Assembly: GCF_963921235.1 (NCBI RefSeq)
Contig: NC_086108.1
Span: 4,526,001 to 4,590,000, forward strand
Direction of reading: 5' to 3'
Source: Mobula hypostoma
Taxonomy: Eukaryota
Length of the DNA stretch: 64,000 bases
The translations under genes were made by a program, and so were the position numbers. Positions 2,608 to 47,901 of this stretch are shown piece after piece. The stretch's first letter is position 1. Every line of letters starts with the position of its first letter. The notes beneath the pieces were generated by a model, which worked only from the letters and a program-made list of their open reading frames with translations, was not told the origin of the DNA and ran no database searches.

Positions 2608-5600
2608 CCATAGGACAAAGGAGGAGGAGAAGCCCATCAAGTCTGCTTCACCATTCCATCGTGGCTGATTTATTATTCCTCTCAACCCCATTCTCCAGCC
2701 TTCTCCCCCATGACCTCTAATCAAGAACTTACCACTCTTCACGTTAAATAAGCCCAATGGCTCAGCCTCCACAGCCATTGTGGCAATGAGTTTCACCACC
2801 CTCTCACTAAAGAACTTCCTCATTTTTATTCTAATGGACATCCTTCTATTCTGAGGCTGTGCCCTCTGGTCCTAGACTCCCTCATCATAGGAAACATCCT
2901 CTCCACATCAACCCTATCTGTGCCCTCTGGTCCTAGACTCTCTCATCATAGGAAACATCCTCTCCACATCCACTCTATCTGTGTCCTCTGGTCCTAGACT
3001 CCCTCACTATAGGAAACATCCTTTCCACATCCACTCTATCCATGTCCTCTGGTCCTAGACTCTCTCATCATAGGAAACATCCTCTCCACATCCACTCTAT
3101 CTGTGTCCTCTGGTCCTCGACTCCCTCACTATAGGAAACATCCTCTCCACGTCCACTCTATCTGTGCCCTCTGGTCCTAGACTCCCTCATCATAGGAAAC
3201 GTCCTCTCCATATCCACTCTATCTGTGCCCTCTGGTCTGGGACTCTCCCATCATAGGAAACATCCTCCCCACATCCACCTCTATCTGTGTCCTCTGGTCT
3301 TAGACTCCCCCCACCATAGGAAACATCCTCTCCACATCCACTCTATCTGTGCCCTCTGGTCCTAGACTCCCCCACTATAGGAAACATCCTCTCCGCATCC
3401 ACTCTAACTGTGCCCTCTGGTCCTAGACTCCCTCACTATAGGAAACATCCTCTCCACATCCACTCTATCTGTGCCCTCTGGTCCTAGACTCCCCCACTAT
3501 AGGAAACATCCTCTCCGCATCCACTCTAACTGTGCCCTCTGGTCCTAGACTCCCTCACTATAGGAAACATCCTCTCCACATCCACTCTATCTGTGCCCTC
3601 TGGTCCTAGACTCCCTCACTATAGGAAACATCCTCTCCGCATCCACTCTAACTGTGCCCTCTGGTCCTAGACTCCCTCACTATAGGAAACATCCTCTCCA
3701 CATCCACTCTATCTGTGCCCTCTGGTCCTAGACTCCCCCACTATAGGAAACATCCTCTCCACATCCACTCTATCCATGTCCTCTGGTCCTAGACTCTCTC
3801 ATCATAGGAAACATCCTCTCCACATCCACTCTATCTGTGTCCTCTGGTCCTCGACTCCCTCACTATAGGAAACATCCTCTCCACGTTCACTCTATCTGTG
3901 CCCTCTGGTCCTAGACTCCCTCATCATAGGAAACGTCCTCTCCATATCCACTCTATCTGTGCCCTCTGGTCTGGGACTCTCCCATCATAGGAAACATCCT
4001 CCCCACATCCACCTCTACCTGTGTCCTCTGGTCTTAGACTCCCCCCACCATAGGAAACATCCTCTCCACATCCACTCTATCTGTGCCCTCTGGTCCTAGA
4101 CTCCCCCACTATAGGAAACATCCTCTCCGCATCCACTCTAACTGTGCCCTCTGGTCCTAGACTCCCTCACTATAGGAAACATCCTCTCCACATCCACTCT
4201 ATCTGTGCCCTCTGGTCCTAGACTCCCCCACTATAGGAAACATCCTCTCCGCATCCACTCTAACTGTGCCCTCTGGTCCTAGACTCCCTCACTATAGGAA
4301 ACATCCTCTCCACATCCACTCTATCTGTGCCCTCTGGTCCTAGACTCCCCCACTATAGGAAACATCCTCTCCACATCCACTCTATCCATGTCCTCTGGTC
4401 CTAGACTCTCTCATCATAGGAAACATCCTCTCCACATCCACTCTATCTGTGTCCTCTGGTCCTCGACTCCCTCACTATAGGAAACATCCTCTCCACGTTC
4501 ACTCTATCTGTGCCCTCTGGTCCTAGACTCCCTCATCATAGGAAACGTCCTCTCCATATCCACTCTATCTGTGCCCTCTGGTCTGGGACTCTCCCATCAT
4601 AGGAAACATCCTCCCCACATCCACCTCTACCTGTGTCCTCTGGTCTTAGACTCCCCCCACCATAGGAAACATCCTCTCCACATCCACTCTATCTGTGCCC
4701 TCTGGTCCTAGACTCCCCCACTATATGAAACATCCTCTCCGCATCCACTCTAACTGTGCCCTCTGGTCCTAGACTCCCTCACTATAGGAAACATCCTCTC
4801 CACATCCACTCTATCTGTGCCCTCTGGTCCTAGACTCCCCCACTATAGGAAACATCCTCTCCGCATCCACTCTAACTGTGCCCTCTGGTCCTAGACTCCC
4901 TCACTATAGGAAACATCCTCTCCACATCCACTCTATCTGTGCCCTCTGGTCCTAGACTCCCCCACTATAGGAAACATCCTCTCCACATCCACTCTATCCA
5001 TGTCCTCTGGTCCTAGACTCTCTCATCATAGGAAACATCCTCTCCACATCCACTCTATCTGTGTCCTCTGGTCCTCGACTCCCTCACTATAGGAAACATC
5101 CTCTCCACGTTCACTCTATCTGTGCCCTCTGGTCCTAGACTCCCTCATCATAGGAAACGTCCTCTCCATATCCACTCTATCTGTGCCCTCTGGTCTGGGA
5201 CTCTCCCATCATAGGAAACATCCTCCCCACATCCACCTCTACCTGTGTCCTCTGGTCTTAGACTCCCCCCACCATAGGAAACATCCTCTCCACATCCACT
5301 CTATCTGTGCCCTCTGGTCCTAGACTCCCCCACTATAGGAAACATCCTCTCCGCATCCACTCTAACTGTGCCCTCTGGTCCTAGACTCCTTCACTATAGG
5401 AAACATCCTCTCCACATCCACTCTATCTGTGCCCTCTGGTCCTAGACTCCCCCACTATAGGAAACATCCTCTCCGCATCCACTCTAACTGTGCCCTCTGG
5501 TCCTAGACTCCCTCACTATAGGAAACATCCTCTCCACATCCACTCTAACTGTGCCCTCTGGTCCTAGACTCCCTCACTATAGGAAACATCCTCTCCACAT

Positions 5601-6267
5601 CCACTCTATCCATGTCCTCTGGTCCTAGACTCTCTCATCATAGGAAACATCCTCTCCACATCCACTCTATCTGTGTCCTCTGGTCCTCGACTCCCTCACT
5701 ATAGGAAACATCCTCTCCACGTTCACTCTATCTGTGCCCTCTGGTCCTAGACTCCCTCATCATAGGAAACGTCCTCTCCATATCCACTCTATCTGTGCCC
5801 TCTGGTCTTGGACTCTCCCATCATAGGAAACATCCTCCCCACATCCACCTCTACCTGTGTCCTCTGGTCTTAGACTCCCCCCACCATAGGAAACATCCTC
5901 TCCACATCCACTCTATCTGTGCCCTCTGATCCTAGACTCCCCCCAACATAGGAAACATCCTCTCTACATCCACTCTAGCTAGGCCTTTAGATTTTCAATA
6001 GGTTTCAATGAGATCCCCCGAAATTCTTCTAAACTCCAGCAAGTACAGACTGAGAGCCATCAAACGCTCCTCATATGATAATCCTTTGATTCTCGGGATG
6101 ATTCTGATGTACCCCCTCTGCTCCTTCTCCAATGACAGCACATCCTTTTGTAGGTAAGGGACCAAAATGGCTCACAATACTCCAAGTGTGGTCTGAGCAA
6201 AGCCTTATAAAGCCTCAGCATTACGTCCTTGCTTTTATATTCCAGTCCTCTTGAAATGAATGCTAGC
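2608..6267 (-). mobile_element. CR1 LINE 3' fragment split by an internal 61-bp array
   Basis: CR1 3' UTR at about 2608-2850; the ORF2 C-terminal sequence resumes at about 5980-6267 and is homologous to the other CR1 copies at 35160-35815 and 45455-46190. Confidence 0.85.
2857..5977. repeat. 61-bp tandem array, about 51 copies, with ~612-bp higher-order repeat
   Basis: Unit tgtgccctctggtcctagactccctcactataggaaacatcctctccacatccactctatc. The variant catgtcc recurs at 3041, 3775, 4387, 4999 and 5611. Confidence 0.97.
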
Positions 6268-6384
6268 CCGTTGAGTACGTGGCTATCTCCTACCCTCCTG
6301 GGTCAGAGGCACAGGCCTGGGGCCAATAAAGCAGGTGTGTCACCTCTCTCTGCCTCATATTGATTCTTGCATAATGTCCCCCAG

Positions 6385-6513
6385 CCAGGAAAGCTCCCGA
6401 TGGAAGCATCATTCCGAACACCTATTGCGATTTCTGTCTGGGTGGGACTTCTGGGAACAAGAAGACAGGGTTTCCTGAAGATCTCATTTCCTGTGCGGAT
6501 TGCGGGCGCTCCG
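6385..6513 (+). CDS. DPF1: DPF1 internal coding exon, first half of PHD1 ([43 protein letters not shown])
   Basis: Manual translation matches the d4-family motif (human DPF1 recalled as [21 protein letters not shown]...[14 protein letters not shown]). Acceptor cccccag| and donor |gtgagt; 129 nt, phase 1 to phase 1. Confidence 0.93.
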
Positions 6514-6954
6514 GTGAGTTTCAGTTGATTTACCTTCGCTCGGGCCCCCTGCCAGCACCACCTGTGCCCCCCCCAAACCATCTCCTCCGCCGGTCCCCTT
6601 TCACCATCCCCCTCCCCCCTCCTTCAATGCCCACCTCCCATGGCACCATCCAGAGGCAGAGGATGGGGCGTAGGGAGTCTCGGAATGCCAAAGGAGCTGG
6701 ATAGGAAGTGTAGAGTGAGCGGGGGGAGCTGTTGGCTGGCAGGCCTGGTGCTGAGGTGGATGGGTAATTTGAGCACGATCTGCAAGGAAGGGCCAGCATT
6801 CAGTAATTCAAAGTGAATTTATTACCGAAGGACGTAATGCCACCTGATGCTGCCTTGAGATTCATTTTCTTGCAGGCATTTACAGGAAAATAAAGAAATA
6901 CAATTGAATTAATGAAAAGCTATGCATAAACTGACAAGCAACCAATGTGCAAAT

Positions 6955-7235
6955 GAGCATGGTAGTGTAGTGGTTAGCACAGTGCTTTACAGTACCGATA
7001 AGCGGGATCAATTCCCACCACTGTCTGTAAGGAGTTTGTACGTTCTCCCCGTGACCACGTGGGTTTCCTCTGGGTGCTCCGGTTTCCTCCCACAGTCCAA
7101 AGGTGTACTGGTTAGTAGGTGAATTGGTCTTGTAAATTGTCCCGTTATTAGAGAAGGGCTAATTTAGAGGATTACTATTGGGGGGGGAGGGGCACGGTTT
7201 AAAGGGTTGGAAAAGCTTATTCCACGCTTTATCTC
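6955..7235 (+). mobile_element. tRNA-derived V-SINE (HE1-like)
   Basis: Head ggtagtgtagtggttagc (A box) and V-domain gggtttcctctgggtgctccggtttcctcccacagtccaaag. Confidence 0.8.
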
Positions 7236-7751
7236 AACAAATAAATAAAAATGTGCAAATAAACAAATAAATAATACTGAGAACATGAGTTGTCAAGTCC
7301 TTGAAAGTGAGTCTGTAGGTTGTTGTGGTGCGTGAAGTTATCCACACTGGTTCAGGAGCCTGATGGTTGTGGGGTAATAACTGTTCCTGAACCTGGTGGT
7401 GTGGGACCTGAGGCTCATTGTGGTGAGTGAAGTTATCCACACTGGTTCAGGAGCCTGATGGTTGTGGGGTAATAACTGTTCCTGAACCTGGTGGTGTGGG
7501 ACCTGAGGCTGCTGTACCTCCTGCACGAAGGTAGTAGCAGGAAGAGAGCATGGTCTGGATGGTGGGTGGCTTTGATGATGGTTGCTGCTTTCTTGTGGCA
7601 GTGTTCCTTGTAGGTGTGCTGAATGGTGGGAGGGGCTTTTCCTGTGATGGATTGGGCTGTACACACTTCTGTAGTCTATTTGGTTCTTGGGAACTGGTGT
7701 TTCCATACCTTGCCGTGACACAATCTGTAGAATGTATCTATAGAATATGTA

Positions 7752-7875
7752 GCAGTCCTGATGAAGGGTCTCGGCCCAAATCATCAGCTGCCTGATCTGC
7801 TGAGCTCCTCCAGCGTTGTGTGTGTGTGTGCATCACTCTGGATTTCCAGCATCTGCAGAATCTCTTGTGCTTCTA
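7752..7875 (+). mobile_element. Penelope-type terminal repeat with a degenerate hammerhead
   Basis: cagtcCTGATGAagggtctcggccc followed by aaa (GAAA and cleavage site lost), then the same 3' block seen at 23940-24025. Confidence 0.65.
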
Positions 7876-9216
7876 GAAGTTTGTCAAAGTTGTCACGGTG
7901 AGACTCAGGGATGTGCGGGGGATCCCCTGGATCCTAGCTCGGTGCCACCTTACTGTGGTGATCTCCGATGGAGCCTGGGGCTGTTTGAGGGCAGCCCCCA
8001 ACTCCATTCCCTGCCAAGCCTCAGTGTACCTCTCTCTAGAGCCTTCCTCCAACCTCACGCCCAGCAAGGATTTTTGCGGTACAGGGAATGCAGTGGGCTT
8101 GTGAACTCTGCAAGGTTCTATAACAACCACGTGGTGAAGGACACACCATCTAGCTCTGGAGAGACATTGATCGCAGGGTCCTGGAGAGAACCCCCCCTCC
8201 CCCACCACCACCAACTCTCATTCATAATGGTGGCCTAACCAACCACCCCAAAGATGAGGTGCCAAGATGGCGTCGAGCTGCAGTTTCTGTCAAGTTCGTG
8301 ACCACAAGACATAAGAGCAGAATTAGGCCACTTAGCCCATTGAGTCTGCACCGCCATTCATTATGGTCAATCCATTTCCCTGTCAGCCCCAATCTCCTGC
8401 CTTCTCCCCGTATCCCTTCATGCTCTGACCAATCAAGAATCTATCAACCTCTGCCTTAAATACACCTAATGACTTGGCCTCCACAGCTGCCTGTGGCAAC
8501 AAATTCCACAGACTCACCACTCTGGCTAGAGAAATTACTCCCAATCTCCGTTCTAAATGGACATGGTTGTTTCTTTAGTTTCGTAGGGATGGTTTTGGAA
8601 CAGAGGGGGGTTAGAGATCAGGTTAGAGTTTAGAGACAAGGATGTGGGGGAGATAGTGGACATGCCAGCATCCAAGCCTCGGCTCCATTTTGGAAGGTCA
8701 GCAACGTGGACATGGTCGGATGTCAGCAGACCAATGAGAAACAGGGGCCGGCGACTGCCCCTTGGGATGTGAATCGTGAGGTCAGAGTTCAAGGCCTAGT
8801 GCTGGGCATCACATCATCGGAGAGTCTGGAGTTTTGGGTTCCTCATCCAGGGCCCTCATTCATCATTATGGTGAGTCCCGGGGTCGATACCAAAGACTGA
8901 GGTGCAAAGGTCAATCAGAGGTCAAGATCAAAGCCCGAAGAATGATCAGAAGCCCAGAGGCCAAGGCCCAATGACTAGAGCCCTGAGTCTGTGAACCTCT
9001 GCAAGACTGTTGGGAAAGTCAAAGGCCCGTTAGTCTACTGGAGGCTGGAGGCCAAAGCAGATGGGCAGCCCTGGGGTTAGCTTGGCTGGGTGGGAGGAAT
9101 GGGGATTGTTTTGTTGTTGTTGTCTTGTTGCTTGGTGTGTTCTGTGTTTCGCCAAGCATTGTAGGCATGCTGTGTTGATGCTGGAATATGTAGCAACACT
9201 AATAGGCTGTTCTCGG

Positions 9217-11614: not shown

Positions 11615-13440
11615 AATGAGGGAGGGGGTTACAGAGACAGGAAAGGGGGTTGGTGAGGGAGGGGTTACAGAGACAGGAAGGGTTGGTGAGGGAGGGGTTA
11701 CAGAGACAGGGAGGGGTGTAGGCGAGGGAGAGGTTACAGAGACAGGAAAGGGGGTTGGTGAGGGAGGGGTTACAGAGACAGGAAGGGTGTTGTTGAGGGA
11801 GGGGTTACAGAGACGGAGGGTGTTGGTGAGGGAGGGGTTACAGAAACAGGGAGGGTGTTGGTGAGGGAGGGGTTACAGAGACGGAGGGTGTTGGTGAGGG
11901 AGGGGTTACAGAGACAGGGAGGGCGTTGGTGAGGGGGGGTTACAGAGACAGGGAGGGTGTTGGTGAGGGCGGGGTTACAGAGACAGGAAAGGGGTTGGTG
12001 AGGGAGGGGTTACAGAGACAGGGAGGGGTGTAGGCGAGGGAGAGGTTACAGAGACAGGAAAGGGGGTTGGTGAGGGAGGGGTTACAGAGACAGGAAGGGT
12101 GTTGTTGAGGGAGGGGTTACAGAGACAGGGAGGGTGTTGGTGAGGGAGGGGTTGCAGAGACAGGGAGGGTGTTGGTGAGGGAGGGGTTACAGAGACAGGG
12201 AGGCTGTTGGTGAGGGAGGGGTTACAGAGACAGGAAAGGGGGTTGGTGAGGGAGGGGTTACACAGACAGGGAGGGTGTTGGTGAGGGAGGGGTTGCAGAG
12301 ACAGGGAGGGTGTTGGTGAGGGAGGGGTTACAGAGACAGGGAGGCTGTTGGTGAGGGAGGAGTTACAGAGACAGGGAGGGTGTTGGTGAGGGAGGGGTTA
12401 CAGAGACAGGGAGGCTGTTGGTGAGGGAGGGGTTACAGAGACAGGGAGGGTGTTGGTGAGGGAGGGGTTACAGAGACAGGGAGGGTGTTGGTGAGGGAGG
12501 GGTTACTGAGACAGGGAGGCTGTTGGTGAGGGAGGGGTTACAGAAACAGGGAGGGTGTTGGTGAGGGAGGGGTTACAGAGACAGGGAGGGTGTTGGTGAG
12601 GGAGGGGTTACAGAGACGGAGGGTGTTGGTGAGGGCGGGGTTACAGAGACAGGAAAGGGGTTGGTGAGGGAGGGGTTACAGAGACAGGGAGGGGTGTAGG
12701 CGAGGGAGAGGTTACGGAGACAGGAAAGGGGGTTGGTGAGGGAGGGGTTACAGAGACAGGAAGGGTGTTGTTGAGGGAGGGGTTACAGAGACAGGGAGGG
12801 TGTTGGTGAGGGAGGGGTTACAGAGACAGGGAGCGTGTAGGGGAGGGAGGGTGTTACAGAGACAGGAAGGGTGTTGTTGAGGGAGGGGTTACAGAGACAG
12901 GGAGGGTGTTGGTGAGGGAGGGGTTACAGAGACAGGGAGCGTGTAGGGGAGGGAGGGTGTTACAGAGACAGGGAGGGTGTTGGTGAGGGAGGGGTTACGG
13001 AGACAGGGAGGGTGTTGGTGAGGGAGGGGTTACAGAGTCGTGGAGTGGCACAGTGGAGGGAGGGTGTTTACAGAGACAGGATGGTGTAGGGGTCAGAAAG
13101 TTTTACTAAGACAGGGAGGGGTGTTATGGTGGGATTGGTTTGCAGAGACGGAGGGGTATAGGGGGAGGGAGGGGTTACAGAGACAGGGATGGTGTAGGGG
13201 GGTTACGGAGACAGGGAGGGTGTTGGTGAGGGAGGGGTTACAGAGACGGAGGGTGTGGGGGGGGGTTACAGAGACAGGGAGGGTGTTGGTGAGGGAGGGG
13301 TTACGGAGACAGGGAGGGTGTTGGTGAGGAAGGGGTTACAGAGGCAGGAAAGGGTGTTGGTGAGGGAGGGGTTACAGAGACAGGGAGGGTGTTGGTGAGG
13401 GAGGAGTTACAGAGACAGGGAGGGGTATAGGGGGAGGGAG
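11615..13440. repeat. G-rich ~35-bp minisatellite
   Basis: Unit gggagggtgttggtgagggaggggttacagagaca, about 50 copies. Confidence 0.93.
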
Positions 13441-17407: not shown

Positions 17408-17520
17408 GTCACCCCTCGTGCCTGCAGTTCACGGTCAACATGACGGCGGCGGTGAGGACCTATCGCTGGCAATGCATCGAATGCAAGTCCTGCAGCCTCT
17501 GTGGCACCTCAGAGAACGAC
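17408..17520 (+). CDS. DPF1: DPF1 coding exon ([38 protein letters not shown])
   Basis: Translation matches the DPF1 PHD1/PHD2 junction as recalled. Pyrimidine tract plus cag| acceptor, |gtaagt donor; 113 nt, in frame with the previous exon. Confidence 0.96.
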
Positions 17521-22511: not shown

Positions 22512-23260
<749 letters not shown>

Positions 23261-23811
23261 AACATAGAACAGGAACACGCTCTCTGGTCTACGGTGTTGT
23301 GCCAAACCTATCAAATTAGTAATCAGATGGCCAACTAAACTAATCCCTTCTGCCTTCACAATGTCCCTATCCCTCTACTTCCCTCACATTCACGTGCCTA
23401 TCTAAATGTCTAGTGGAAAATACGGCAGGAGGAGGGGCAGGTAGTGTTGAGGAAACAGAGAGGCTGCAGTAGGATGAAGATTAGGAGAATAGGCAACAAA
23501 ATGGCAGATGGAATACAGTGTCAGGAAGTGTGTGGTCATGCACTTTGAGAAATGAAAGTGTAGACTACTTTCTCAATGAAAGAAATTTCAAAATTCCGAG
23601 GTGCAAAGGGACTTGGGAGGATTCCCTAGAGACTGGAGCTGAGAGGAAAAGTGGATCAGCCATGGTGAAATGGCAGGGGAGACTCGATGGGCCAAATGGC
23701 CTAATTCTGCTCCTGTATCTTATGAGTCCGTAATGTACTGCCACTAGCAGCACTCCAGGCAGTGCATTCCAAGCACCCACTCTCTTAATGAAAGCAGGGT
23801 AGTAGAAAAAC

Positions 23812-24029
23812 AAGCAACACACATCAAAGTTGCTGGTGAACGCAGCAGGCCAGGCAGTAAGAGATCTCTTACTAACTCTTCCTTCAGTTAGTCCTGATGA
23901 GGGGTCTCAGCCCGAAACGTCGACTGTACCTCTTCCTAGAGATGCTGCCTGGCCGGCTGCGTTCACCAGCAACTTTGATGTGTGTTGCTTGAATTTCCAG
24001 CATCTGCAGAATTCCTCGTGTTTACGTCA
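23812..24029 (+). mobile_element. Penelope-type mini-element with inverted arms and a 9-bp TSD
   Basis: TSD TAGAAAAAC at 23803-23811 and 24030-24038; 47-bp inverted repeat 23811-23857 / 23945-23991 with one mismatch. Confidence 0.85.
23890..23925 (+). ncRNA. Minimal type I hammerhead ribozyme motif (Penelope-associated class)
   Basis: AGTC-CTGATGA-GGGGTCTCAGCCC-GAAA-CGTC|GACT: intact CUGAUGA and GAAA cores, stem I AGUC/GACU, stem II GGG/CCC, palindromic ACGU in place of stem III, GUC cleavage triplet. Confidence 0.75.
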
Positions 24030-24764
24030 TAGAAAAACGATGCAAGTTCAAGGTTCAGTGAATGGGGGAGGGGTGAGTGAGAGAACAAAAGGGAACGTCT
24101 GTGTTAGGCTAGAGTTCAGGAGTGGGTGAGAACTCAAGTGGTGGTCATTCAGGCTGAGAGAGGGCGGGGAGAATAAAAAAAAGGAAAGTATGTCTGACGA
24201 AGTTGGCGACAGAGGGAGACAAACAAAATACAAATTTACTTTTTTTTTAAAACTGAGTGAACAAAATAGGGAATGAAAAGATTGGAACTGCTGTGCTCAG
24301 CATTGCAGCTGGAAAGCTGCATTCCACACAGTCAGAAGGTGAGGTGCTGGTTTGTGAGCTTACATTGAGGGTCTGCAGACAGAGCGGTTAGAGGGGAAGT
24401 GTGAAGGAGGACTGAACTATCAGGCCTGATAATTATCTTTCGGCCTGAAGTATTAATTCTGATGCTGTGCCTGGTTGGCCAAGTAATTCCAGACTCTTCT
24501 GCTTTTGTGCCAGATTTCCAGGATCTGCAGTAGCTTGGGGAGCTTAGGGATGCTGTGTTTTTCCTGGTCGGTGGATGAAGCCTGATTGCTTGAGTTTATG
24601 TGGAGGATATGACATAGGTTGGGCCATTCTTGTTCTCCTCTCCCATCCCTTTCACCATCACCCCTTCGGTCAGCTCACCGCTCTTGCCTTCTGTGGAAGC
24701 CCTCACTCATTTCCTGCTCCCTTTCACACCCATTTTAAATCCCCATCCACGTTTGCAGTGCCTG

Positions 24765-25040
24765 TGTTGTGGGTAGTGGTGAGCACAACGCTTTGCTGTA
24801 CCAGTGACTCGGGTTCAGTCCCTGCCACTGCCTGTGAGGACTTTGTACGTTCTGCCCGTGGGGGCGGCACGGTAGCGTAGTGGTTAGCGCAACGCTTTAC
24901 CATACCATTGACCCGGGTTCAATTCCCGTCACTGCCTGTAAGGAGTTTGTACGTTCTCCCCGTGACCGTGTGGGTTTCCTCTGGGTGCTCTGGTTTCCTC
25001 CCACAGTCCAAAGACATACAGGTTAGTAGGTTAATTGTAT
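24765..25040 (+). mobile_element. V-SINE, two tandem tRNA heads followed by the V-domain
   Basis: ggtagcgtagtggttagc A box, gggttcaattcc B box, V-domain core. Confidence 0.8.
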
Positions 25041-25044
25041 TGGC

Positions 25045-25390
25045 TTGCTTACTGCCTGATACGCTGCTGGTGTTTAGGGCAGTAATAAAGGTGCTCCACC
25101 TCTGTCTGTCCATACTGTCACTCAGATGTAGAAGGATTCTTCACCGCTGTTTCCGTAACAGTTTGGCTTGACCAGTCTTGGTTAATAGTCATGAGCTGAA
25201 CCCCAAACCTGGAGGACTAGAGGACCATTCTTAGTGTGGCCTCTACCCTTTGACCCTTTGACCTATTTGGCATGGGTGACCCCTCCAAGAGCTAAAGCAC
25301 GAGGCCCTGACTCCAGCCAACATGGCTGTCCAGGTCATTGAGGAAAACAAGCCTCCTAACCCTATGACAAGGGTGTGGTCCTCCTAGGGG
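25045..25390 (-). mobile_element. RTE-type short element (family A)
   Basis: DRQRWSTFITALNTS end; aligns to 340-705. Confidence 0.65.
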
Positions 25391-25864
25391 TTGTGAGTTG
25401 GACATGTGGGTGTAATTGGGCCCATTGGGCCCTATTACTGTGCTGTATCTCTAAATTAATAAAACCAGTGGGACCAGGATTATAGACGTTTGCTGTGCAG
25501 GCCTTGGAAAAGCCTGTGTGCGCCTGGTCCTGGTCAAACCCATCCAGTTCAGTGTGTTCGTTGGGCTGGGAGGGCCCGTTACTCTGCTGTATCTCTAAAT
25601 AAAAAATAAAATAAACCAGAAAGGGAAGAGAGAAAAAGTGGAAACCCTCAGCAGGTCAGGCAGCAGCGGCGGAGAGAGGAGCAGTTATATGGTTAATGAG
25701 GCTCGCACAAAATGCTGCATGAACTCAGCAGGTCAGGCAGCATCAATGGAGGAGAATAAATGGTAAACGCTTTGGGCCGAGGCCCTTTATCAGGACTGGG
25801 AAAGAGAAAGGAAATGATGCTGGAGGAACCCAGCATCTGTGGAGAGAGAGACTGTTAAACAGAT

Positions 25865-26460
25865 TATAGAAGAGTACAGCACAGGGAGAGGCCATTCGGC
25901 CCACAATGTTGTGCTGAACCAGCTAAAAAGCACCCAAACACTATCCCTCCTCCCTACAGCATGTCCATATCCCTCCATCTTCCTCACATCCATGTGACTA
26001 TCCAAATATCACTTAAAAGCCTCTAATGTATTTGCCTCTACCACCAGACCAGGCAGCGCATTCCAGACATCCACCACTCTCTGAGTAAAAAACTTACCCC
26101 TCACATCCCCCTTGATCCTACCCCCTCTCACCTTCAATGCATGCCTTCTGATATTAGACATTTCTACTCTGGGAAACAGATACTCTCTGTCCACTATATC
26201 TATGCCTCTCATAGTCTTATAAACCTCTATCAGATCTCCCCTCAGCCTCCCACACGCCAGAGAAAACAACCCAAGTTTATCCTGCCTCTCATGCTAGCAC
26301 ATGCCCTCTAAACCAGGCAGCATCGGGTAAGCCTCTTCTGCAGCCTCTCCAAAGCCTCAATATCCTTCCTGTAGTGGGGTGACCAGAACTGTACACAATG
26401 CTCCAGATGCGGTCTAACTAGAGTTTTATGAATTTGGAACATAACCTCCTGACCTTTGAA
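25865..26460 (-). mobile_element. CR1 3' fragment
   Basis: LVRPHLEHCVQFWSPHYRKDI and RLRGDLIEVYK...FFTQRVV. Confidence 0.9.
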
Positions 26461-26807
26461 CTGGATATTTTGCAGTTGGGTCCGCTCACCGGGACTGGGA
26501 AAGAGAAAGAACACGATGCTGGAGGAATTCGGCAGGTCAGGCAGCATCTGTGGAAGGAAATGGACAGTTGATGTTCCAGGTCAAGACTTTTCATCTGGAC
26601 TGAAGAATAGAGGAGAGAGAGCTGGTGTAGAGAGGTGGAAAGGTGGGGTGGCAAGTGATGGGTGAATCCAGGTGAGGAGGGATGATAGGCAAGTGGAGGA
26701 AGGAGGTGAGGGGTGGAGGTGACACAAGGGCTGCAGATAGTGGAACCTGATAGGAGAGGAAGGTGGAGCACGGAACCAAATCAGGGAGGTGGGGAGGTGA
26801 TACGGGA

Positions 26808-27394
26808 ACTGTGTGTGTGTGTGTGTTGTGTGTGTGTTGTGTGTTGTGACTGTCTGTGTGTGTGTTGTGACTGTGTGTGTGTGTGTTGTGTGTTGTGACT
26901 GTCTGTGTGTGTGTTGTGACTGTGTGTGTGTGTTGTGACTGTGTGTGTGTGTGTGTTGTGACTGTGTGTGTGTGTGTGTTGTGACTGTGTGTTGTGTGTT
27001 GTGACTCTGTGCGTGTGTGTGTTGTGACTGTGTGTGTGTGTTGTGTGTTGTGACTGTGTGTGTATGTGTGTGTGTTGTGACTGTGTGTGTGTGGAGAGTG
27101 TGTGATGTGACTGTGTGTGTGGAGAGTGTGTGATGTGACTGTGTGTGTGTGTGTGTGTGTGTGTGTTGTGACTGTGTGTATGTATGTATGTGTGTGTGTA
27201 TGTGTGTTGTGTGTTGTGACTGTGTGTGTGTGTGTGTTGTGACTGTGTGTGTGTTGTGACTGTGTGTGTGTTGTGTGTGATGTGTCTGTGTGTGTGTGTA
27301 TGTTGTGTGTGTTGTGACTGTGTGTGTGTGTGCGTTGTGTGTGTTGTGACTGTGTGTGCGTGTGTTGTGTGTGTTGTGACTGTGTGTGTGTGTG

Positions 27395-27436
<42 letters not shown>

Positions 27437-27441
27437 GTGAC
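26808..27441. repeat. Compound (TG)n / gttgtgact microsatellite
   Basis: Seen directly in the sequence. Confidence 0.95.
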
Positions 27442-27924
27442 TGTGAATCAAGTCACCGGAGAGACACTGAAGCTGGTGTCTTTATTCACAGAAGCAAGCA
27501 GTCATCATACTGGAGACAGTCTCGGAAGGCAAGGCCCCTAGACTTATAAAACATCACATTTTTATACCCTTAAAATCAATAGTAACTCAATAGTTTTTGA
27601 ATAGTTAGAATAATGTTGTTTACTTCATTACTTCCTCTTGAGCTGCATGTAAATTTCAAACAGCTAAATCTTCACGCCAACACTCCTGACACCTAGATTG
27701 AATGTTAATCACCACTGTTCCTGAATGCATTCATGCATATGCAGACATCTCAGGTCAATGGGATGTTTCCTGGTTTACAATCAACCCCAGTCTGCAGCTC
27801 CAGGAAGATCATTGTTCTGAGCTGCATTCTAAATTCAATCTACAATCCACATTCAGATCTGAAGACTGCTTGCTGTAGGAATTGATATTTACTATATTCC
27901 ATAACTCCAGAGTCTGCCCTAACA
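27442..27924 (-). mobile_element. Possible solo LTR
   Basis: TG...CA ends; on the minus strand a TATA-like ggtataaaaa precedes aataaa. No TSD visible. Confidence 0.35.
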
Positions 27925-28489
27925 ATGGGCAGGTAAAGTATGAGGGGAACTTGGTAGATCCAGGAGTGAGGGAATGGGCCAGAGGAGGAGTTTACTGGAA
28001 GATAAAGAGACAACATTGGATTGTAGACTACGCAGGCAGAATGTGAGGTGCTTTTCCACAGAATGTTACTAGTCTTCACTTAGAAGACTAAATGAAGGAG
28101 AGAGAGACAAAGACAGACAGAGCAAGAGCCAGAGAGTGAGAGACACAGTGTGTATGAGACAGCGGAGGGAGGGAGACAGACAGAGATAGAGAGGCATACA
28201 GAGTGAGAGATAGAGAGAGTGGGAGAAAGGGGGATATCTCTGATAGGCAAAGACCAGGTGATTCCAAGTGGCAGTCAGGTTTAGGATGTTGTTGATAGTG
28301 AAGTTGTGATGACACTCCACAGACCTGAAGGAGCTGGGAAATGGGAGGAGCCTGAAGCGTAGTTTTGGCCACCAAGAAGAGGACGGGTCAAATCGCCTCC
28401 TCTGGTGTAAACTTTGCTGTTTGCCCGGAGCAGAAGATCTCACCTTTTTAACAAATTTATCATTAAAAATCTGACTTTCTTTTTTTCTT

Positions 28490-28596
28490 CTCTCTCTCCC
28501 TTTTTCACTCTCTTTCTGTCACACTCACACCCACTGTCTCACTCCATCTCTCTCCCCTTTTCTCCGACTCTCTCCCTCTCTCGCTGTCTGTGTGTG

Positions 28597-28652
<56 letters not shown>

Positions 28653-28781
28653 TTTGTCTGTGTCTCTGTCTCTGTCTTTCTCCCCCCTCTGTCTTTCTCT
28701 CTCTATCTCTCACTCTGTATGTCTCTCTATCTCTGTCGGTCTCTCCTCTCAACTCTCACACACACCACACACTAACTGTCT

Positions 28782-28819
<38 letters not shown>

Positions 28820-28895
28820 TCTCGGTCTCTCACACACACACACGCACTCTCTCTCCCCCTCTCTCACCCCCTCCCTCCCCCCCTCCCCCTCACAG
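28490..28895. repeat. (CT)n / (CA)n low-complexity tract before the last DPF1 exon
   Basis: Seen directly in the sequence. Confidence 0.9.
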
Positions 28896-34530: not shown

Positions 34531-35159
34531 AGTCCTGATTCCACTTCCAGAACAGTGTCAGATTTGTGAGATGGTGGACTGTGCAGATGTTTAGCATGTC
34601 CCAGGCAGAAGCCAACATCCCCCCCCCACATCTGGATTCCACGTAACACACCGAAAATGCTGGAGGAACTCAGCATCTCGGCCCGAAACGTTGACTGTTC
34701 ACTCTTTTCCAATGCTGAGTTCCTCCAGCATTTTGTGTGTGTTGCTTTGGATTTCCAGCTTCTGCAGATTTTCTCTTGTTTGTGTCTGAGTTCTAAGTGT
34801 TGGCTCTGCACAGGGCCCAAGGAGAGAGCATTAAGGGCCCCTGTGTCCCACAGATCGCTAAAAGCTGTGGTCTCCATCGGCGTGGATGTCGATTCCGTGT
34901 CTTTAGTGCAGGGGGCAGGGGAAAGGTCACTCTCTCGAATTTAACTGTTGCACTCCAGACCCGGTGAAGTTAACAGAGGGGTTCAGTCGCCAATGGCAAC
35001 CAGAGAGGCTGCTGTAGAAGTGAACATTCACCAGTGTTCAAGGACTTGATTCTCAACACTGAGTCCCAATCTTTACTAGAAAGAGGTTTGAGCTGACAAT
35101 CCACAATCTTACAATCATATGGAATAGACAGAGGCTATTCAGCCCATCAAGTCTGTGGT

Positions 35160-41154: not shown

Positions 41155-41900
41155 AAACACACAGAAAACGTTGGAAGAACTCAGCAGGTCAGGCAGCATC
41201 TATGGAATTCCTTTCTTCAGGTCTGGAAAGGCAGGGGGAAGTTGCCAGAACAAAAAGGTGGGGAGGGGCTGGGGCAGGAGGACAAGCTAGGAGGAGATAA
41301 GTGAAGCCAGGTGGGTGGGAAAGGGCTGGAGAAGAAGAAATCTGATAGGAGACGACATTGGACAATAGGAGAAAGGGAAGGAGGAGGGGACTGAGGAAGA
41401 AGTGATAGGTAAGTGAGAAGGTGAAAGGTCAGAGCGGGAAAGTGGGAGAGGGGTGGAATTTGTTTACCGGAAGGAGAAATCGATATCTATGCCATCAGGT
41501 AGGTGGCTGAAATAAGAGGCTGCGAGGTGATAGGTGGAAGAGGTAAAGGGCTGAAGAAGAAGGAATCAGGTGGGACTTTCCCCTCACCTGGTCTCACCTG
41601 TCACCTGCAAGTGTACTCCTTCCCCTCCCCCACGCACCCACCTTCCCCCTCGTCCAGTCTCACCTCTCAGGTGCCACCTTCTCCTTCCGACTTCTACCCT
41701 CTTCTGTTCCAGTCCCAGTGGAGGGTCTCCATCTCAAACGTTCCCTGAGGAAAGGGAAGGAGGATAGGGACCAGAGGGAGGTGATGGGCAGGTGAGGTGA
41801 AGAGAAGGGGTGAGAGGGGAACCAGAATGGGGAATGAAAGAAGAGGGAAGAGGGGGGAGGAGGGAGAATTTAATGGATGTTTGCAAAATCAATGTTCAAT
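41155..41900 (-). mobile_element. Cluster of Penelope-like 3' UTR / terminal fragments
   Basis: gaactcagcaggtcaggcagcatct terminus plus purine-rich blocks homologous to 22780-23110. Confidence 0.6.
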
Positions 41901-47698: not shown

Positions 47699-47901
47699 AT
47701 CCAATCACGAACAAGAGAAAATCTGCAGATGCTGGGAGTCTATCATCTTGTGTTTCTCCCACCCTCCCCCAACCTTTAAATGTACTCCTCATCTTTTTTT
47801 CCCAGTCTTACTGAAGGGTTTCAGCCCGAAACGTCGACTGTACTCTTTTCCATAGATGCTGCCTGGCCTGTTGAGTTTCTCCACTGTTTTGTGTGGGTCT
47901 C
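47699..47901 (+). mobile_element. Penelope-type terminal element with a mutated hammerhead
   Basis: TSD TCAATCATATT at 47688-47698 and 47902-47912; cagtcttactgaagggtttcagcccgaaacgtcgactg. Confidence 0.75.

Follow-up and report, generated by a model that had tools for sequence, protein, structure and literature searches.

Background

The last intron of a gene coding for a double-PHD protein of the d4/DPF family contains, on its sense strand, the motif of a minimal hammerhead ribozyme. This raises the question of whether the host pre-mRNA carries a latent self-cleavage site, as an earlier sequence-only reading had proposed, or whether the motif is a passive remnant of a retroelement. The window, i.e. 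the entire 64,000-nucleotide stretch of Mobula hypostoma DNA under analysis, includes host exons on the plus strand at about 6385-6514, 17408-17520, 22515-22596 and from 28896, and the flagged element (23803-24038) lies in sense orientation between the last two of these. The gene is presumably DPF1 rather than DPF2 or DPF3, as judged from the C-terminus of its product; a PDB search with one exon scored DPF2 and DPF3 almost equally (59.2 and 59.1 bits). Its introns also harbor long low-complexity tandem arrays (about 11700-13400 and 26400-27500) with strong GC skew and repeated reading frames, and the last intron holds a tRNA-like head (24866-24937, plus strand; Rfam tRNA, 31.8 bits), probably that of a tRNA-derived SINE.

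The element is very probably a 5'-truncated, dead-on-arrival insertion of a Penelope-like element (PLE), with a hammerhead that came along as a passenger of the pLTR and most likely never cleaves in the host pre-mRNA.

Anatomy of the insertion

The sequence-only reading had described an intact minimal hammerhead inside a TSD-flanked insertion of the Penelope type, and this description is borne out. The cores CTGATGA (23894-23900) and GAAA (23914-23917) are in place, as are stem I (AGTC, 23890-23893, with GACT, 23922-23925), stem II (GGG/CCC) and the ACGT palindrome that forms the stub of helix III. An NUH site is present, the segment GAAACGTC ends at C23921, and the predicted cut falls between 23921 and 23922. 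A minimal-hammerhead descriptor matched the window at 23894 only and matched none of 100 shuffled windows; together with a z score of -13.3 for the fold of the whole element, this argues that the motif is not a product of chance. An Rfam search returned no hammerhead among its 8 matches at E <= 10. The three G-C pairs of helix II place the window copy slightly nearer to the canonical form than the commonest variant of its family, AGGGTCTCGGCCTGAAA, where helix II is closed by G-U or A-U; in the window the closing pair is G-C, as is usual.

The perfect 9-bp TSD (TAGAAAAAC) and the 18-bp palindrome were likewise confirmed. The inverted repeat with a single mismatch is present as well, yet it measures 46 bp and not the 47 bp first reported, the 47th position being a second mismatch; the repeat search reports a longer version of 53 nt with 94% identity. 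When positions are numbered from the base just past the predicted cut (23922 = 0), the sense arm spans -58 to +107, with the tail as its final 39 nt. The inverted arm goes from +68 to +23, omits about 73 nt and terminates at -58, thereby creating the palindrome. The missing 73 nt, which separate the two remnants of the inverted arm, correspond to the antisense hammerhead, presumably lost by deletion, and an AG microhomology lies at the join. The same palindromic junction occurs at 39 distinct loci of the genome (56 matches), which differ from one another in their flanks and in how long their arms are, and undeleted forms of it exist. The positions of all features are collected in Table 1.

Table 1. 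Features of the host intron and of the insertion (positions in the window)
Feature	Position	Strand	Basis or remark
Host intron, the last one of the DPF-family gene (probably DPF1)	22597-28895	+	
Left TSD	23803-23811	.	Sequence, repeat search
Partial pLTR copy in inverted, antisense orientation (tailless second reverse-transcribed arm)	23812-23857	-	Complements 23945-23990
Far-end remnant of the inverted arm	23858-23864	-	Comparison with undeleted palindromic copies L024, L026, L041-L060
18-bp palindrome, head-to-head junction of the arms	23856-23873	.	Center 23864/23865; predicted cut 58 nt downstream
Sense pLTR fragment of an RT + GIY-YIG Penelope-like element	23864-23990	+	91-92% identity to both pLTRs of L101
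Branch-point-like TACTAAC, pyrimidine tract and CAG/TAG (3'-splice-site-like)	23870-23891	+	Overlaps the competing hairpin
Minimal type I hammerhead motif	23890-23925	+	Helices, CTGATGA, one extra base, GAAA, ACGT
39-nt PLE tail, sense arm only	23991-24029	+	Runs on into the 5' UTR in the full-length element
Right TSD	24030-24038	.	Sequence, repeat search

The 3'-splice-site-like segment (23870-23891) also holds the initiator-like strings TCAGTT and TTAGTCC. Branch points, splice sites and initiators follow short consensus motifs, and all of these assignments are predictions from such motifs. The term tail is used as defined for related elements (PMC8557442, PMC11167929).

The parent family

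A search of the 3.48-Gb genome yielded 2,908 candidates, of which 40 were scored. The insertion had been regarded as young and self-contained; it does appear fairly young, being 97.6% identical to its nearest counterpart among 76 long matches at the loci retrieved, but it is not self-contained. Many matches extend upstream of the position equivalent to 23864 into a pyrimidine-rich 3' UTR and then into a reading frame, which in long copies codes for the motifs YIDD, CKRNKCYTC and GVIYC..LYIGET (GIY-YIG). A protein search of the genome listed at least 150 matches, several of them in open frames of more than 1,000 codons.

One copy, L101, is complete. It comprises a 5' pLTR, an RT-endonuclease ORF of 1014 codons from the first ATG, a 3' UTR, a 3' pLTR and a TSD, with the hammerhead about 140 nt before that ATG. 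Its pLTRs form a 240-nt direct repeat at 98.8% identity. The Pfam matches of its ORF, RVT_1 (E 3.8e-5) and GIY-YIG (E 3e-4), both fall slightly below the curated cut-offs, and a PDB search with the RT-EN part returned nothing at E 0.01. The single ORF with an RT and, at its C-terminus, a GIY-YIG domain, the pLTRs arising from partial tandem copies (L101) or inverted copies (the window), and the one-ended tail of 30-40 bp beside a short TSD (39 nt and 9 bp in the window) are those of an endonuclease-bearing (EN+) PLE. The linker CKRNKCYTC conforms to CX2-5CxxC, and a CxxC inside the GIY-YIG domain is followed by two downstream histidines (CCHH), as in Neptune. The parent thus appears to be an endonuclease-bearing PLE with a CX4CX2C linker, Neptune-like by its motifs. 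An RT-EN linker is common to Neptune and Nematis (PMC8557442).

The family is very abundant. Exact matches in the genome number 32,355 for a tail 34-mer, 48,862 for a hammerhead 33-mer, 61,016 for a 25-mer at the hammerhead 5' side (one per 57 kb) and 121,821 for a downstream 17-mer, all of which are counts of arms and not of loci, since both arms of inverted insertions are included. Reversed-sequence control probes gave 0-1 matches. The 61,016 exact matches of the 25-mer imply that the DPF1 copy is not special. Forty copies were sampled by their tail alone (the first 30 and the last 10 of 100 listed places, all on contig C1); an inverted 5' arm was found in 19 of them, a TSD of 7-15 bp in 28, and an intact CTGANGA..GAAACGTC core in 19.

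Several copies retain open frames of 1,040-1,130 codons (C2:192829537, C9:117701289, C12:171224903 and C21:108005239 among others), which suggests that the family was active recently. Other copies are inserted in further retroelements, at L064 (1677-2390, plus strand), L008 (40-657, plus) and L079 (1-450, plus), where the flanks contain one RT frame resembling that of LTR retrotransposons and others resembling those of LINEs. Scattered over the window are older relics, either of this PLE family or of a sister family, at 7754-7872 (plus), 25720-25797 (minus), 34676-34781 (plus), 47735-47877, 41156-41201 (minus) and 22703-22726 (minus). One of them lies antisense within the same DPF intron, and those that include part of the hammerhead have broken cores.

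Comparison with known elements

A truncated and inverted PLE end with a minimal hammerhead is of an already known kind, and its anatomy has been published (PMC8557442, PMC3846280, PMC4209133). The metazoan pLTR hammerheads described by Cervera and de la Pena (2014, PMC4209133) share with the present motif the 4-bp helix I, the extra base after CUGANGA, the G-C pair closing helix II and the palindromic ACGU in place of helix III; they too occur mostly as single copies from truncated PLEs, and also as opposite-strand pairs. The differences are a helix II of 3-4 bp rather than 7-8 bp, and a copy number here of more than 60,000 exact 25-mers, compared to the 4,000-9,000 given for coelacanth and Xenopus in the same account.

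The EN+ PLEs share the 5' truncation, the adjacent inverted copy, the short TSD, the one-sided tail of 30-40 bp, the junction palindrome and the microhomology deletion (Craig et al. 2021, PMC8557442; Arkhipova et al. 2013, PMC3846280). The inverted, 5'-truncated copy and the 30-40 bp tail are described in the former, and an inverted pLTR, a 9-bp TSD, an 18-bp junction palindrome and a microhomology deletion in the latter. Neptune and Nematis further share with the parent element a Zn-finger-like linker and a GIY-YIG domain at the C-terminus; the window copy, by contrast, keeps no ORF sequence. For the Anolis Poseidon element PAc, Frangieh et al. (2024, PMC11167929) explain the tail as the stretch that separates two internal sites at which the RT starts. 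Its two tail-bounding starts, about 70 and 100-107 nt past the cut, and the use of uncleaved RNA as template are shared with the present family. In PAc, however, the hammerhead lies across the start codon and not in the 5' UTR some 140 nt before the first ATG, and PAc belongs to the Penelope/Poseidon clade, which is without the linker. Non-LTR retrozymes (bioRxiv 10.64898/2026.07.22.740005) resemble the window copy in their PLE-derived type I hammerhead, in being non-coding and in their often intronic location, yet they are built of head-to-tail tandem units, whereas the window copy is one insertion joined head to head, with just one hammerhead, in sense orientation.

Origin of the window copy

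The arms are probably explained by two cDNAs, by analogy with the behavior of the anole element in vitro. The RT-endonuclease of the element would nick the target at sites 9 bp apart, and two cDNAs would be primed inside uncleaved element RNA: one at the tail end, giving the sense arm, copied from 24029 to 23864, and another roughly 39 nt further 5', giving the inverted arm from 23812. Both would come to a stop at -58 relative to the hammerhead cut and join head to head, which would generate the palindrome, and about 73 nt of the inverted arm would be lost at or after insertion. In the host pre-mRNA the hammerhead would then be tucked into a long hairpin.

The sequence-only reading had instead spoken of a mini-element, a term that proves mistaken: the inverted repeat, the palindrome and the tail are usual by-products of a single PLE insertion event. 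A non-autonomous unit propagating itself as a 218-nt hairpin, in the manner of a MITE or a retrozyme, is extremely improbable and largely refuted. It would fit the compact, TSD-flanked form of the element, the 8 other loci that match most of its length at 85-92% (among the best 40 of the 2,908 candidates) and the 39 loci with the common palindromic junction. However, the matching loci are not uniform in where their arms start, how long these are and what is deleted internally, and the internal junction of the window copy recurs at 0 of the 29 other best-matching loci, while the palindromic junction class is small against tens of thousands of copies. Nor does the element resemble a MITE, with many copies of one fixed unit bounded by terminal inverted repeats, as the tail lies outside the repeats; and the two or more head-to-tail units of a retrozyme, each with a complete hammerhead, are replaced here by one sense hammerhead and a deleted antisense one.

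Folding and the prospect of cleavage

The minimum-energy fold of the whole element is one long hairpin of -122.5 kcal/mol, in which the competing hairpin noted earlier (actaact, 23871-23877, with agttagt, 23886-23892) indeed appears. The predicted probability of helices I and II is 0.00 in both 23803-24038 and 23603-24238, and the fold compatible with activity reaches -113.2 kcal/mol, so that forcing the helices costs 9.3 kcal/mol. In the loop alone, helix I attains a predicted probability of 0.07. A bare 36-45-mer is predicted to form helices I and II, but its core pairs with the CGUC of the cut site, as in an inactive monomer. In bare 36-mers, the double hammerhead lies 7.9 (with itself) to 10.6 kcal/mol (with L101) above the monomer hairpins, in nearest-neighbor energies that consider one helix II register and neither tertiary contacts nor proteins. 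Lunse et al., as cited in PMC6765202, are said to have reported cleavage of minimal hammerheads as dimers.

These predictions bear on the proposal that another family transcript, or a PLE protein, activates the intronic site in trans and thereby cuts the DPF1 pre-mRNA. Such a site is conceivable in principle, with an intact core on the sense strand, a self-complementary ACGT that permits a double hammerhead and partner copies abundant in the DNA; moreover, the anole PLE hammerhead cleaves in the presence of the PLE protein (PMC11167929), and dimeric constructs show low cleavage (PMC4209133). The case is nevertheless weak, and we regard it as most unlikely, given the sequestered stems and the energetic cost of the double hammerhead. 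Published minimal hammerheads do not cleave as monomers and do so little as dimers (PMC4209133). The anole hammerhead cleaves only with the PLE protein and is not needed for insertion; the minimal RNA of that protein reaches 172 nt into the ORF, whereas the window fragment is without ORF sequence, and no anole RNA-seq ends fall at the cleavage site (PMC11167929). Family inserts, in addition, seldom begin at the cut, and with tens of thousands of equal copies the effect would apply equally to very many other introns. An influence on the host through RNA structure or splicing, with the 46-bp stem serving as a substrate for editing or dsRNA-binding proteins or with a cryptic 3' splice site, is also very improbable. 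The stem is predicted to be very stable, and TACTAAC, pyrimidines and CAG do follow each other on the sense strand, yet the splice-like motif lies inside the hairpin, its branch-to-AG distance is short and it is common to about 67,000 copies. The passenger reading is therefore preferred, and the hammerhead of the DPF intron is probably silent in vivo; what may speak against it is that the core is fully intact and that equilibrium folding ignores co-transcriptional folding and proteins.

Where the copies end

The family shows a pattern of its own in the position of its 5' junctions. Within the 40-copy sample, the sense 5' end fell at -39 to -22 in 14 of the 34 copies at risk (2.3% per base). 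Between +59 and -21 it did so in 6 of 40 (0.19% per base), and 1 of 37 copies had it no more than 5 nt from the cut. Since the zone was chosen once the sample had been seen, the binomial p of 1e-12 makes the contrast look stronger than it is. This 18-nt zone, equivalent to 23883-23900 in the window, spans the 5' core and helix I. The window copy itself ran past it, to -58. Inverted arms start 30-50 nt further 5' yet often end in the same zone in this sample, which favors a feature of the template over a fixed cDNA length.

Genome-wide counts agree. From 76,741 helix II anchors, 55.2% keep the 7-mer at -39 to -33, while 81.5% keep a control 7-mer downstream; about 32% of arms thus end between the anchor and -39 to -33, and about 20% of them before -32, in estimates that pool both arms and whose mutation correction assumes equal decay of the probes. 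In the next upstream interval, 82.1% of 81,962 anchors keep the 6-mer (a loss of about 2%), and across the cut 81.2% of 121,821 downstream anchors keep the 7-mer (a loss of about 3%, with some 97% reading through). Junctions at single positions, which microhomology blurs by a few bases, number 4,150 of 61,016 at -32 and 607 at -36, compared to 474 at the cut and 184 at +7. Among the first 100 matches at -32, 19 belong to an older sister family. The few arms lost across the cut, together with the ends at the 5' edge of the hammerhead, indicate that the templates were uncleaved RNA and that some feature at this edge terminates reverse transcription. Cleavage as the event that defines the 5' ends is not supported, the 81.2% retained across the cut being set against 81.5% in the control. 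The 474 junctions at the cut, about 1.7-fold those at +7 after correction for detection, possibly represent a small excess; the cut itself is a GTCGAC palindrome, and perfect palindromes centered on it occur at 70 loci.

It is possible, although we consider it rather doubtful, that the hammerhead region acts without cutting, whereby tail-primed reverse transcription would halt on the hammerhead's 5' strand, in helix I and CUGANGA, which lie 22-39 nt upstream of the cut. Either the RNA would begin at this point, or a fold or factor would block the enzyme. As the cause of the end zone, an RNA 5' end at the initiator-like TTAGTCC (-32) and TCAGTT (-36) is ranked first, though held at less than even confidence. 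A fold or a bound protein that blocks the RT is placed second and is somewhat improbable; repair bias or artefact comes last, as an unlikely cause. Penelope has been described as having an internal, TATA-less promoter. A block at the 3'-splice-site-like motif is a further candidate; the position of this motif matches that where the intron of D. virilis ends (PMC4209133).

Several other traces were sought at the junctions. There was no sign of a cap-derived extra G at -33 (by hand count, 17 of the first 100 among the 4,150 matches have G), and spliced retrocopies joining either of two guessed donors to the acceptor-like AGs numbered 0 and 0. Among 16 loci chosen for a GA-AG junction (10 at -32, 6 at -36), no shared upstream exon was found; 10 carry an inverted arm at the junction, and 6 (L102, L105, L108, L109, L114 and L115) a short ACGAAG duplicate of the element's own sequence at the 5' junction, which looks like a templated insertion during end joining. 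One specific arm junction is present in just 7 copies. The fold-back point of the palindrome was rejected as a fixed RNA 5' end, with only the 39 loci and 1 of 40 sampled copies ending at -58, and a hairpin of the nascent cDNA, at about -3.4 kcal/mol, is a weak terminator.

Conclusions

The DPF1 copy itself is of little weight, being one of tens of thousands. If anything here is new, it is the family-wide pattern of ends: no truncation hot spot in the hammerhead zone was found described in the literature searched, and Fig. S2 of PMC11167929 may bear on the point. The end counts lend genomic support, from a second PLE clade, to the in vitro claim of an uncleaved RNA template, and the 18-nt end zone bears on the open question of what purpose the PLE hammerhead serves. 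Should the proposed reading of this zone be true, about a third of the arms would be short cDNAs of the strong-stop type, the in vivo templates would have been uncleaved, and tens of thousands of inserts would record either the 5' end of the element RNA or a stop of its RT.
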